64,000 nt of DNA, from sequence record NZ_CP090684.1. The stretch is one strand, 5' to 3'. The stretch comes from a plasmid. Each line of letters opens with the position of its first letter. Positions within the stretch are counted from its first letter, which is position 1. Both the position numbers and the translations under genes were made by a program. Below are positions 26,301 to 28,069 of this stretch, piece by piece. A model generated the notes under the pieces. That model was not told where the DNA came from and did no database searches. It saw only the letters and a list, made by a program, of their open reading frames with translations.

Positions 26301-27588
26301 TGATCAGCGCTACGGTACGACGAGCTACAGGTACGACCCGACCGGCCGCATTGAGCAGGCGACGGGGCCAGGCCTACCGTCCGAGGTGTTCCGCTGGGAT
26401 GCCGCCGCGAATCTGGTATCGAGTGACCACCCGGGTGGATACGTCGAATACAACCGGCTCAGGATGTTCGACGACAAGCGCTTCGAGTATGACGCGTACG
26501 GGCGGCTCGCGCGCAAGCTCAGCGGCCACGGCCCCGCCAGAGAGCAGACGTTCGAATACGACGACTGGAATCAGCTGAAGACCGTCGTGACGAAGGACCG
26601 GCTCGGCGTGTCGACCACGCACTTCGAATACGACGCGTTCGGTCGCCGCATCCGCAAGCTCAACGGCAGCTACTCGAGCACGGATTTCCTGTGGGACGGC
26701 ATGCGGCTCGTGCAGGAGACGTATCACGACCGGTGCGGCGAAGAGGCGCTGACGTATCTGTACGAAGCAAATAGCTACGCCCCGCTCGCACGGATCGATC
26801 ACGCTGCGCCGGCGGCCAACGACGCGGAGGCTCGAGATGCTGTCTATTATTTCCATAACGACGTGTCTGGATTGCCGGAGGAACTGACCGACGCTGACGG
26901 CGAGCTGGTCTGGCAGGCCCGCTACAAGGTGTGGGGCAACGCAGTTCAGGAGGAGTGGATCGCGCGTGCGCCGCAGCAACCTGCGGCTGCATGGGGGGAA
27001 GTGCAAACGGCGGCGACACCGGGCCACGTGCCGCGGCCGCAGAACCTCCGCTTCCAGGGCCAGTATTTAGACCGCGAGACCGGGCTGCACTACAACACGT
27101 TCCGCTTCTACGATCCCGATATCGGACGGTTCATCAACCCCGACCCGATTGGTCTGAACGGCGGCCACAACTTATACCGCTACACACCTAATCCGATCAC
27201 CTGGATCGATCCATGGGGATGGGCAGGATGTACGCTGACCAAAGCCAAATCGAAGGACTATGATTACACTCTGCGGTTGAAGCGATCCGAATATCCCCAG
27301 ACGTTCGGGCATATCTCTGATGCTATCGGCAATGGACACGCGGATATCGTGACCGTTCAGAGAGGCAGCGCGAAGCTGAATCGGAAGCTCAGTCTGGCCG
27401 GCATAAAGACCAAGGCCGGCATGGACCGAGACGAGTGGCCGATGGCGATGTTCAAGGAAGGTGGTGATGGCGCAAGCGTGAGATATATTGACCCAAGCGA
27501 TAACCGCGGTGCCGGATCAAGCATCGGCAACGCGTTGTCTGATTTGCCAGACGGAACAAGAGTAAAGGTAGAAATTTTCGATGAGTGA
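23323..27588 (+). CDS. rhs: prePAAR-PAAR-Rhs T6SS effector with a NucA/NucB-like DNase C-terminal toxin
   Basis: prePAAR [10 protein letters not shown] (AARxxDxxxH). Two TM regions, a PAAR domain and many YD/RHS repeats. Core ends at PxxxxDPxGL-like [15 protein letters not shown]...IDPWGW near nt 27210. The ~120-aa C-terminus contains [32 protein letters not shown], matching the B. subtilis NucB motif as recalled. GC drops over the C-terminus. Confidence 0.9.
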   Translation: [1421 protein letters not shown]

Positions 27589-28069
27589 CAATCTCAGCCA
27601 AACGGTTGATCTCCTTATTTCCCATAGTCAGATTCTGGTGCGGTCTCGACCCTATGACGAAGGTTTGAGCCAATGGGGAACGGGAAACATTGATCAGGGC
27701 GCGGTCTTGCATGCCGACTACCTCATTTTTGACCCGCTTCCGGACGATGCCTTCGGCGCAAAGGTCTACCTGCAAGTGCTGGACAAGTTCGAGATGGACG
27801 AGCGGGCCGCTCGGTGCATCGTTGCTCCCTTTCATATTACGGATCGTAACGCGCTCGAAGTCGCTTCCGCGACCGAAAAATTCAAAATCTCGCTGCAACT
27901 ACCGCTTAATGCTTACGACGTGTATTACGAGGTTTGCGAAGGCGACGAAGTTTTCTACAAATTTACGTTTGTCTCAGAAGCCAAGCATCATCAAGCAAAA
28001 TATTTGCGAGATGATCCCTGGGGTGGGAAAAAAGACATGCCTCTTGTTTCTGGGAAGTTCGATAGATAG
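27581..28069 (+). CDS. cognate immunity protein for the Rhs C-terminal toxin (putative)
   Basis: 8-nt overlap with the rhs stop. Markedly lower GC. 162 aa with no signal peptide. Confidence 0.6.
   Translation: MSDNLSQTVDLLISHSQILVRSRPYDEGLSQWGTGNIDQGAVLHADYLIFDPLPDDAFGAKVYLQVLDKFEMDERAARCIVAPFHITDRNALEVASATEKFKISLQLPLNAYDVYYEVCEGDEVFYKFTFVSEAKHHQAKYLRDDPWGGKKDMPLVSGKFDR

Follow-up and report, generated by a model that had tools for sequence, protein, structure and literature searches.

We found that a plasmid of Burkholderia multivorans (sequence record NZ_CP090684.1) carries what we take, with a probability of roughly 0.87, to be a complete auxiliary T6SS effector module. It consists of vgrG, an Eag chaperone gene, a prePAAR-PAAR-Rhs gene with a NucB-type tip, and a ComJ-family immunity gene, of which the tip and the immunity gene would form an exchanged cassette (Table 1). 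The plasmid that bears it as cargo is conjugative. Below, "the window" refers to the whole 64-kb stretch of DNA that was analysed.

Table 1. Features of the plasmid-borne rhs module, with positions counted from the first nucleotide of the window.
Feature	Position	Strand	Remarks
vgrG, 716 aa	20676..22826	+	T6SS spike; predicted seat of the PAAR-Rhs effector
Eag-type chaperone gene, DcrB/DUF1795 family, 157 aa	22853..23326	+	Pfam DcrB PF08786, E = 4.6e-28
PAAR-Rhs gene, 1421 aa	23323..27588	+	TGA at 27586-27588
Rhs delivery scaffold, aa 1-1300	23323..27222	+	prePAAR, PAAR, DUF6531, RHS-repeat shell, RHS core
Second DPxG[LW] motif, DPWGW, D1296-W1300	27208..27222	+	Predicted catalytic Asp; predicted autocleavage site W1300/A1301
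Toxin tip, A1301-E1421, 121 aa	27223..27588 including stop (27223-27585 coding)	+	NucA/NucB (Tox-ComI) domain
Probable immunity gene, ComJ/Nin family (Imm-ComJ), 162 aa	27581..28069	+	ATG at 27581-27583, inside the last rhs codons

The initial annotation of this DNA had compared the C-terminus of the Rhs protein with Bacillus NucB. The open reading frame coordinates and the C-terminal residues that it quoted were confirmed in the sequence, in which the protein continues after NPDPIGL...IDPWGW from AGCTL to a terminal VEIFDE. The resemblance itself also held. The last 152 aa matched Pfam DNase_NucA_NucB (PF14040) with 30.5 bits (E = 5.3e-7; cut-off 23.8), and the full-length protein likewise scored above the cut-off (25.9 bits). 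In a phmmer search against the PDB, the tip matched B. licheniformis NucB (5OMT_A, E = 5.6e-35, residues 4-105 of the 110 in the chain; 6EJS, also NucB, E = 5e-35), and 61 of 102 residues (60%) are identical to the crystallised enzyme across the whole catalytic domain. Mutagenesis has shown that H53, D93, E94, and N117 are required in BlNucB, which carries the motifs DRDE and DNRG (PMC5758888). These residues align with H1330, D1370, E1371, and N1394 of the tip, all four of which are invariant in an alignment of 34 homologous sequences. An AlphaFold model of the tip (pLDDT 97.1) superimposes on 5OMT with an rmsd of 0.9 Å (TM 0.86/0.96), and its significant PDB matches are NucB structures only; a NucB-type beta-beta-alpha-metal fold is thus predicted from the model. 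Judged by its sequence, the freed tip is an endonuclease of this type, and it should be a divalent-cation-dependent, sequence-non-specific DNase.

The 162-aa gene downstream, which overlaps the rhs stop by 8 nt as had been noted before, is probably the immunity gene of the tip. Its product matched Pfam ComJ (PF11033) over profile positions 1-121 of 122 with 57.0 bits (cut-off 25; E = 2.1e-15). The best PDB match of its predicted structure (pLDDT 90.6) in a Foldseek search was 4MQD, B. subtilis ComJ (E = 4e-7, probability 1.00), with an rmsd of 2.7 Å over 131 columns, TM 0.64/0.77, and 19% identity. The link to ComJ came only from the Pfam model and the fold search; PDB sequence searches with the protein (phmmer) or with a profile of 33 sequences returned no matches and did not find 4MQD. 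Conserved positions listed for Imm-ComJ (PMC3482391) are W, F[DE], PF, Y, and Y. Among 33 homologues of the plasmid protein, W32 and F50 are invariant, and D51, P83, F84, Y112, and Y126 are nearly so (at least 90%). Membership of this gene in the ComJ/Nin family had been missed in the initial annotation. The same arrangement, a NucB-type tip with a ComJ-family gene downstream, occurs in P. syringae, Aeromonas dhakensis (where the tip is 63% identical to the one described here), E. albertii, and another Burkholderia. In B. subtilis, ComJ/Nin naturally inhibits NucA. When B. subtilis lysates were mixed, Nin inhibited both NucA and NucB, as reported in PMC5758888. The homology to ComJ/Nin is the strongest single argument for reading the two genes as toxin and immunity, and the immunity protein presumably binds the nuclease and blocks it.

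The genes upstream of the tip point to delivery by a T6SS. Directly before rhs and on the same strand are vgrG, whose product matched Phage_GPD (E = 1e-72), Gp5_trimer_C, and Phage_base_V in Pfam, and the DcrB-family gene, which shares 4 nt at its stop with the start of rhs. Annotated tssI/vgrG genes of Burkholderia are approximately 80% identical to the plasmid vgrG at the nucleotide level. None of the four ORFs is truncated, and their starts and stops overlap in the way typical of a working operon. The Rhs scaffold matched PAAR_motif (E = 2.7e-19), DUF6531, RHS_repeat (E = 3e-63), and RHS (PF03527) in Pfam, as well as TIGR03696 (Rhs_assc_core). The prePAAR motif AARxxDxxxH is present at aa 5-14, and hydrophobic 19-mers (Kyte-Doolittle score of at least 1.6) were found within aa 32-75 and 222-240, flanking the PAAR domain; judged by eye, the hydrophobic sequence covers approximately aa 20-75 and 187-240. 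Eag chaperones are known to serve effectors with prePAAR motifs and TMDs (PMC7773334, PMC8636562). In NCBIfam, neither the immunity gene nor the chaperone gene nor orf354 could be assigned to a family, and a promoter/terminator scan of positions 20000-29400 yielded no more matches than expected by chance, none of them informative.

The effector resembles P. protegens RhsA (with EagR1) and P. laumondii Rhs1 (with EagR), with which it shares AARxxDxxxH, hydrophobic N-terminal segments, a PAAR domain, an upstream DUF1795 chaperone gene and vgrG, the Rhs cocoon, and, ahead of the toxin, a pair of DPxG[LW] motifs with a spacing of 17 residues (PMC7773334, PMC8765631, PMC8636562). In the present protein, these motifs are DPIGL (1274-1278) and DPWGW (1296-1300) at the end of the RHS core. 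Their spacing is the same as at the experimentally mapped site of P. laumondii Rhs1, which is cut after the second motif (PMC8636562). Autocleavage is therefore predicted between W1300 and A1301, which would release a toxin of 121 aa. There are two differences from these effectors. Near the putative motif for N-terminal cleavage, the sequence deviates from that of RhsA and Rhs1, and neither the Asp nor the Glu of the motif as published is present at the usual N-terminal autocleavage position. Also, known tips of prePAAR Rhs effectors include the ADP-ribosyltransferase Tre23 and others, whereas the tip in B. multivorans is a DNase of the NucB type.

A nuclease and an inhibitor of these families could instead work as they do in Bacillus, namely, as a nuclease, secreted or on the cell surface, that is paired with a regulatory inhibitor and serves DNA uptake, nutrient acquisition, or the turnover of eDNA and biofilm rather than as an interbacterial toxin. 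The closest characterised relatives, NucA, NucB, and Nin, have such roles (PMC5758888, PMC3482391), and the label of the immunity gene in the public source record is [quoted passage not shown]. The Bacillus pair (5OMT, 6EJS, and 4MQD) and the plasmid pair have in common the active site H, D-E, and N, the DRDE and DNRG motifs, the order of nuclease followed by inhibitor, and the inhibitor fold. However, the Bacillus enzymes are stand-alone proteins with signal peptides and a disulphide, with roles in competence, sporulation, and eDNA, whereas the plasmid nuclease has no signal peptide of its own and forms a cleavable tip in a protein of 1421 aa, where it is fused in frame to the end of a PAAR-Rhs shell that carries an autocleavage motif. 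Its gene adjoins vgrG and an Eag chaperone gene. The positions of Cys66 and Cys100, whose disulphide is typical of secreted Firmicute enzymes, are occupied by V1343 and F1377. This cysteine pair is replaced in all 21 Rhs-linked tips compared and retained in 31 of 34 forms with signal peptides, and its loss fits action in a reducing cytoplasm. Furthermore, the homologue from A. hydrophila is a toxin delivered by the T6SS (PMC12396204). A role like that in Bacillus is thus very unlikely, and a delivered toxin with its immunity protein is the reading that we prefer.

The initial annotation had also proposed that the tip and the immunity gene were swapped as a unit onto a conserved Rhs scaffold, based on a fall in GC content from about position 27230 through the 162-aa gene. 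This fall is real: GC content is 64.5% in the Rhs core, 53.4% in the tip, and 49.8% in the immunity gene, and the corresponding GC3 values are 78.8, 60.3, and 54.9%. With 51.4% GC, the 847-bp cassette (27223-28069) lies below every other stretch of equal length in the window; its value is reached by only 0.06% of sliding windows, all of them at this location (z = -2.7). In the best fit with two breakpoints, the low-GC block spans 27089-28172. An effect of amino-acid composition was considered and rejected, since GC falls most at third codon positions and the break coincides with a break in homology. In blastn searches, approximately 30 rhs loci of Burkholderia, Paraburkholderia, and Trinickia were 67-82% identical to the scaffold at the nucleotide level, with alignments that ended at 27152-27237 and clustered at 27218-27225, at the DPWGW codons. 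Past this motif, the tips of the related Burkholderiaceae loci are unrelated to the NucB tip. Apart from eight identical copies on sister plasmids (L001-L008), the combination of tip and immunity gene was shared with only one other locus (L016). In PLSDB, the whole locus was absent, with only vgrG matched (approximately 80%), and the cassette found no match even in the "distant" mode; the source plasmid is apparently missing from this database. On the alignments, DPWGW is the recombination breakpoint of the cassette. Because homology breaks at this motif, together with the drops in GC and GC3, the view of tip and immunity gene as a horizontally exchanged cassette on a Burkholderia Rhs scaffold is supported.

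Comparison with published systems changed one part of the earlier interpretation. The NucA/NucB tip, the probable immunity gene, and the cassette all stand, but the statement that a NucB-type DNase is an uncommon T6SS Rhs payload does not. Zhang et al. (2012; PMC3482391) catalogued Tox-ComI in alpha-, beta-, and gamma-proteobacteria, where it goes together with RHS repeats, export by the T6SS, and Imm-ComJ. The families (PF14040 and PF11033), the RHS carrier, the T6SS route, and the occurrence in beta-proteobacteria all agree with the B. multivorans case, and there is no difference in kind; the B. multivorans Rhs protein is not named in the searchable text of that paper. The catalogue was purely computational and left the toxin fold unassigned; the later NucB crystal structure revealed it as beta-beta-alpha-metal. 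Our own searches returned many Rhs-borne copies of the NucA/NucB domain, and all ten long carriers that were scanned are RHS proteins. Published work covers the toxin family, the immunity family, their pairing on Rhs/T6SS carriers, and, for one such effector, the activity as a DNase. A literature search for DNase_NucA_NucB together with T6SS gave no match, and two apparent "NucB" matches were false, namely, the stain "NucBlue" in a preprint on Serratia Rhs2 and "T2Rhs-Nuc^BB22^" in a Vibrio paper. RhsB of A. citrulli was rejected as a characterised Tox-ComI effector; its tip is VRR-Nuc-like.

The characterised effector is Rhs2 of A. hydrophila AH54, whose tip of the NucA/B superfamily showed DNase activity that depends on metal ions, both in vitro and in vivo; the effector is delivered by the T6SS, and the product of the downstream gene, Tsi2, neutralises it (PMC12396204). 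Rhs2 has FIX/DUF2345 features, lacks a PAAR domain of its own, and needs separate PAAR proteins (PMC12396204), whereas the B. multivorans protein combines prePAAR and PAAR with an Eag chaperone. In AH54, the locus is part of the chromosome, and the one described here lies on a conjugative plasmid. Rhs2 also bears on the question of the target. It protects A. hydrophila against predation by Dictyostelium, another Rhs DNase reaches fungal nuclei, and B. multivorans is an opportunistic pathogen, such that the main target could be eukaryotic (amoebae, fungi, or host cells). However, the A. hydrophila protein is antibacterial as well, and the dedicated, tightly linked immunity gene and the orphan ComJ immunity genes that occur in related strains (L021) indicate conflict between bacteria. 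There is very little probability in our estimate that eukaryotes are the main target, and such activity would be an addition to the antibacterial module rather than a replacement for it.

The setting of the module on the plasmid raises the question of whether it can be delivered at all. Among T6SS-related genes, only vgrG, eag, rhs, and the immunity gene were found in the window, flanked by conjugation genes. Because no T6SS core genes are present there, delivery must rely on a chromosomal system; B. multivorans ATCC 17616 is reported to have T6SS-1 on chromosome 1 (PMC6612558). The VgrG and PAAR proteins may not fit the apparatus of the host, and the module is missing from a sister plasmid with a relaxase region that is 97.4% identical. 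The locus could thus be a silent or decaying passenger, intact but undeliverable, and without a present function beyond that of the immunity gene. Several lines of evidence argue against this. In addition to the operon structure and the vgrG similarity noted above, the catalytic and cleavage residues are intact, and B. multivorans assemblies contain at least 20 contigs on which the exact Rhs and immunity proteins recur unchanged and always intact. Moreover, vgrG-effector islands located off the core cluster are generally the norm among T6SSs (see also PMC12396204). A passenger locus is therefore improbable, and we favour a working auxiliary module. In the slot adjoining the relaxase, this plasmid has the rhs module and an AcrVA2-like gene, and a sister plasmid has a Type ISP restriction-modification enzyme.

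Based on these comparisons, we propose the following mechanism. The Eag chaperone would shield the N-terminal hydrophobic segments of the effector, the PAAR domain would cap the VgrG spike, and the Rhs shell would enclose the C-terminal tip. The aspartyl-protease motif of the shell (DPIGL-17 aa-DPWGW) is predicted to cut after W1300 and free the toxin, and firing of the T6SS would bring it into the cytoplasm of the target cell. There, Glu1371 may act as the general base while Asp1370 and Asn1394 hold the metal, and killing would occur by degradation of chromosomal DNA. The overlapping immunity gene, which is probably co-translated with rhs, would protect the producer and its plasmid-bearing kin. 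A further suggestion, which is speculative and in our view rather unlikely, is that the plasmid uses the module selfishly: the chromosomal T6SS of the host would kill plasmid-free neighbours and segregants by the DNase, and recipients of conjugation would gain immunity. If true, the module would be a contact-dependent addiction or "greenbeard" device that favours the spread and retention of the plasmid, and the relaxase-adjacent slot would be a swappable site for conflict cargo.

The locus provides an unusually clean textbook case in which both partners of the Bacillus NucA/Nin system reappear as a toxin/immunity cassette. Across phyla, the nuclease has kept 60% identity, compared with 19% for the more diverged inhibitor. 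The NucB-ComJ pair could be used as a structural model of NucA/B inhibition by ComJ/Nin, a mechanism that the NucB structure paper left open (PMC5758888). As cargo of a conjugative plasmid in a cystic-fibrosis pathogen, the module also bears on the interplay between plasmids and T6SS-mediated competition.

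The C-terminal tip of the plasmid-borne Rhs protein is a member of the NucA/NucB family, and the resemblance to NucB that the initial annotation had noted proved correct on four lines of evidence. First, the tip scored 30.5 bits against the Pfam profile DNase_NucA_NucB, above the curated cut-off of 23.8. Second, it matched crystallized Bacillus licheniformis NucB (5OMT and 6EJS; E = 5.6e-35) over the whole catalytic domain, with 61 of 102 residues identical. Third, NucB activity is abolished by mutating His53, Asp93, Glu94, or Asn117, which lie within the DRDE and DNRG motifs (PMC5758888); these residues correspond to H1330, D1370, E1371, and N1394 of the tip and are invariant in an alignment of 34 homologs. 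Fourth, an AlphaFold model of the tip (pLDDT 97.1) had only NucB structures as significant PDB neighbors and superposed on 5OMT with an rmsd of 0.9 Å (TM-score on target 0.96). The resemblance is thus stronger than the modest Pfam score implies.

The Rhs core ends with two motifs, DPIGL (aa 1274-1278) and DPWGW (aa 1296-1300), separated by 17 residues. In Photorhabdus laumondii Rhs1, C-terminal autocleavage was mapped directly behind the second motif of such a pair, which has the same spacing, and the Asp of this second motif is catalytic (PMC8636562). Based on this rule, the released toxin is predicted to be A1301-E1421 (121 aa). The Cys66-Cys100 disulfide of the secreted B. licheniformis enzyme is replaced in the tip by V1343 (27349-27351) and F1377 (27451-27453). 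Among the homologs from a word-indexed search with the tip, this Cys pair is missing in all 21 Rhs-linked tips and is kept in 31 of the 34 forms whose N-terminus resembles a signal peptide. Such loss fits toxin tips adapted to a reducing cytoplasm.

The most telling point, which the initial annotation missed, is that the downstream gene is related to ComJ/Nin. Its 162-aa product matched the whole length of the Pfam profile ComJ (PF11033; 57 bits, E = 2e-15). Sequence-only PDB searches with this protein gave no match. The best solved neighbor of its model (pLDDT 90.6) is Bacillus subtilis ComJ (PDB 4MQD; E = 4e-7, probability 1.00, rmsd 2.7 Å over 131 columns, 19% identity), which was deposited under the title "inhibitor of the DNA degrading activity of NucA." The positions listed as conserved for the Imm-ComJ family (W, F[DE], PF, Y, and Y) vary little or not at all among 33 proteobacterial homologs. 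Together with the tip matches, this shows that the Bacillus NucA/Nin pair recurs in full as Rhs tip and immunity gene, with the gene order kept. The divergence from the Bacillus pair is very unequal: identity is 60% between the nuclease and its counterpart NucB, but only 19% between the inhibitor and ComJ/Nin.

These two elements belong to a module of four co-directional, closely packed genes in the ORF map of the window. The rhs frame ends in TTC GAT GAG TGA, and the ATG of the immunity gene lies inside GATGAG; the 8-nt overlap noted initially is therefore real. Exact-sequence look-ups identified the Rhs protein as ABX19863.1/BAG48000.1 and the small protein as ABX19862.1/BAG48001.1, the latter named [quoted passage not shown] Both accession series belong to the genome records of ATCC 17616, of which there are two. 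All four genes also occur without change on at least 20 contigs from B. multivorans assemblies. Rhs has a prePAAR motif at aa 5-14, and hydrophobic stretches flank PAAR on both sides (segments within aa 32-75 and 222-240; Kyte-Doolittle). Where the N-terminal autocleavage motif D|PVxxxxGE described for Rhs proteins would lie (window ~24043-24072, aa 241-250), this Rhs clade has a conserved ten-residue sequence (or its Ser variant) without the Asp before Pro and without the final Glu, and the same is seen in the compared loci L011-L038. N-terminal processing in this clade may be absent or work differently.

Features of the plasmid window
Feature	Coordinates	Strand	Basis or remark
F-type transfer genes TraC, TraF, TraH, TraG, TraN	28-16941		
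vgrG	20676-22826	+	Phage_GPD, Gp5_trimer_C, Phage_base_V domains (Pfam)
DcrB/DUF1795 (Eag-type) chaperone gene	22853-23326	+	Pfam scan
rhs (1421 aa)	23323-27588	+	PAAR, DUF6531, RHS repeats, RHS core (Pfam, NCBIfam)
Immunity gene (162 aa)	27581-28069	+	ComJ, PF11033 (Pfam)
ORF (354 aa)	28093-29157	+	Right after immunity gene
TrwC/MobF relaxase	29342-32818	-	Just downstream of module
TrwB coupling protein	33288-35315	-	Just downstream of module
DUF5710/Toprim protein	42584-44155	-	Other cargo (Pfam)
PAPS-reductase-domain protein (597 aa), unannotated neighbors	52197-53990	-	Other cargo (Pfam)
SRAP (SOS-response-associated peptidase) gene	61579-62373	+	Other cargo (Pfam)

The proposal of a swapped toxin/immunity cassette on a conserved Rhs scaffold was supported by both base composition and homology. 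GC content (GC3 in parentheses) falls sharply, as first noticed, from 64.5% (78.8%) in the Rhs core to 53.4% (60.3%) in the tip and 49.8% (54.9%) in the immunity gene. At 847 bp, the cassette has the lowest GC content of any segment this long in the 64-kb window; fitting two breakpoints placed the low-GC block at 27089-28172. Because the largest fall is at third codon positions, the drop is not an effect of amino acid composition. A scan with the last 301 core residues, using one genome per species, found 73 loci, mostly in Burkholderia, Paraburkholderia, and Trinickia. About 30 of these aligned to the window with 67-82% nucleotide identity through the rhs core; the alignments end at 27152-27237, most often at 27218-27225, which are the DPWGW codons. 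Past this motif, each locus has a different tip of ~100-145 aa. Apart from the eight sister B. multivorans plasmid copies (L001-L008), in which the tip is identical, Burkholderia sp. IMCC1007 is the only one of the 73 loci with both the NucB tip and the ComJ gene. The homology break, differing tips, and GC drop are the classic hallmarks of a polymorphic-toxin cassette. In Burkholderia sp. LMG 32019 chromosome 1 (L021, 6552-7010), an orphan ComJ-type gene with 77% nucleotide identity to that of the window lies downstream of an Rhs with another tip, and may represent retained immunity against NucB-tipped neighbors. Separately, a 1137-bp contig of the "Streptomyces sp. NPDC057010" assembly (L042, NZ_JBHUSC010000139.1) has a fragment 84% (protein) and 82% (DNA) identical to the Burkholderia Rhs core, most likely due to contamination of that assembly.

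The initial view that a NucB-type DNase on a T6SS Rhs is an uncommon pairing is not supported by the database searches, which gave many Rhs-borne tips of this type, or by the literature. The word-indexed search gave 116 clusters, including Rhs fragments of Escherichia albertii, Aeromonas, Erwinia, Pseudomonas, Proteus, and Bacteroides, and stand-alone Firmicute enzymes. An exhaustive HMMER search of 1.84 billion representatives gave 1453 matches at E ≤ 1e-3, of which 946 reached E ≤ 1e-10. Among the best 150 matches, 21 are proteins of >800 aa that have the domain at their very C-terminal end, and all 10 of these long carriers that were scanned are RHS-repeat proteins (six DUF6531-Rhs and four of SpvB/TcdB/FG-GAP type, two of the latter with PT-HINT). 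ComJ homologs (48-94% identity) were found in Burkholderia, Enterobacter, Xenorhabdus, Salmonella, Pseudomonas, Pectobacterium, E. albertii, Gilliamella, Snodgrassella, and Xanthomonas. The toxin family was defined as Tox-ComI, with RHS repeats, T2SS or T6SS export, and Imm-ComJ or Imm-SUKH, and the Bacillus competence pair may stem from a toxin-immunity pair (Zhang et al., 2012; PMC3482391). In Aeromonas hydrophila AH54, Rhs2 has a NucA/B-superfamily tip that is a metal-dependent DNase, and Rhs2 and Tsi2 are a validated T6SS effector-immunity pair (PMC12396204). NucB-type Rhs tips are also listed in a Stenotrophomonas survey. The WapA tip of Streptococcus suis resembles NucB in structure; it is toxic in E. 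coli, and the co-expressed neighboring gene partly relieves this toxicity.

For immunity families, we compared L082 (5001-6115), L085 (5001-5937), and L087 (943-1967) with the window (27223-28069), L084 (5001-5827), L086 (299-1406), and L088 (4001-4977). ComJ (PF11033) follows the tips closest to that of the window (63-72% identity; P. syringae, Aeromonas dhakensis, and E. albertii), and DUF6707 (PF20453) follows tips at ~55-67% identity (Salmonella, Flavobacterium columnare, and Proteus mirabilis). Two unrelated immunity families serve NucB-type tips.

Homology and sequence features show which domains the four genes encode, that the catalytic and cleavage motifs are intact, that a prePAAR motif and hydrophobic stretches around PAAR are present, and where the cassette boundaries lie. 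By analogy with characterized relatives (PMC7773334, PMC8636562, PMC8765631, and PMC12396204), the Eag protein would chaperone the hydrophobic N-terminus of Rhs, PAAR would mount Rhs on VgrG, and the Rhs shell would enclose the tip. After a cut following W1300, the tip would enter the prey cytoplasm and degrade DNA non-specifically in a Mg2+/Mn2+-dependent manner, and the ComJ-type protein would neutralize the toxin in kin cells. No T6SS core genes were found in the window; a T6SS-1 cluster has been reported on chromosome 1 of ATCC 17616 (PMC6612558).

The module lies inside an F-type/MOBF conjugative plasmid backbone, between the mating-pair-formation genes and the relaxase. In the sister B. 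multivorans plasmid NZ_CP048444.1 (MOBF, MPF_F), the relaxase region is 97.4% identical, and a Type ISP restriction-modification gene, IS elements, and metabolic genes occupy the place of the T6SS module, which makes the module accessory cargo in a variable slot. The 354-aa ORF is "AcrVA2-like" (PF26125) in precomputed Pfam matches of sister contigs; our hmmscan of this ORF did not return PF26125, a family possibly absent from the library scanned. In some sister plasmids (L001 and L003, ~10513-14270), this gene is interrupted by an IS21-type element (IstA/IstB).

In summary, the initial observation is confirmed and its interpretation is supported, except for the claim of rarity. The locus is an uncharacterized member of a toxin/immunity kind that has already been catalogued and, in a relative, validated by experiment. 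Only two points go slightly beyond expectation, namely, that the module sits on a plasmid and that nuclease and inhibitor have diverged so unequally.
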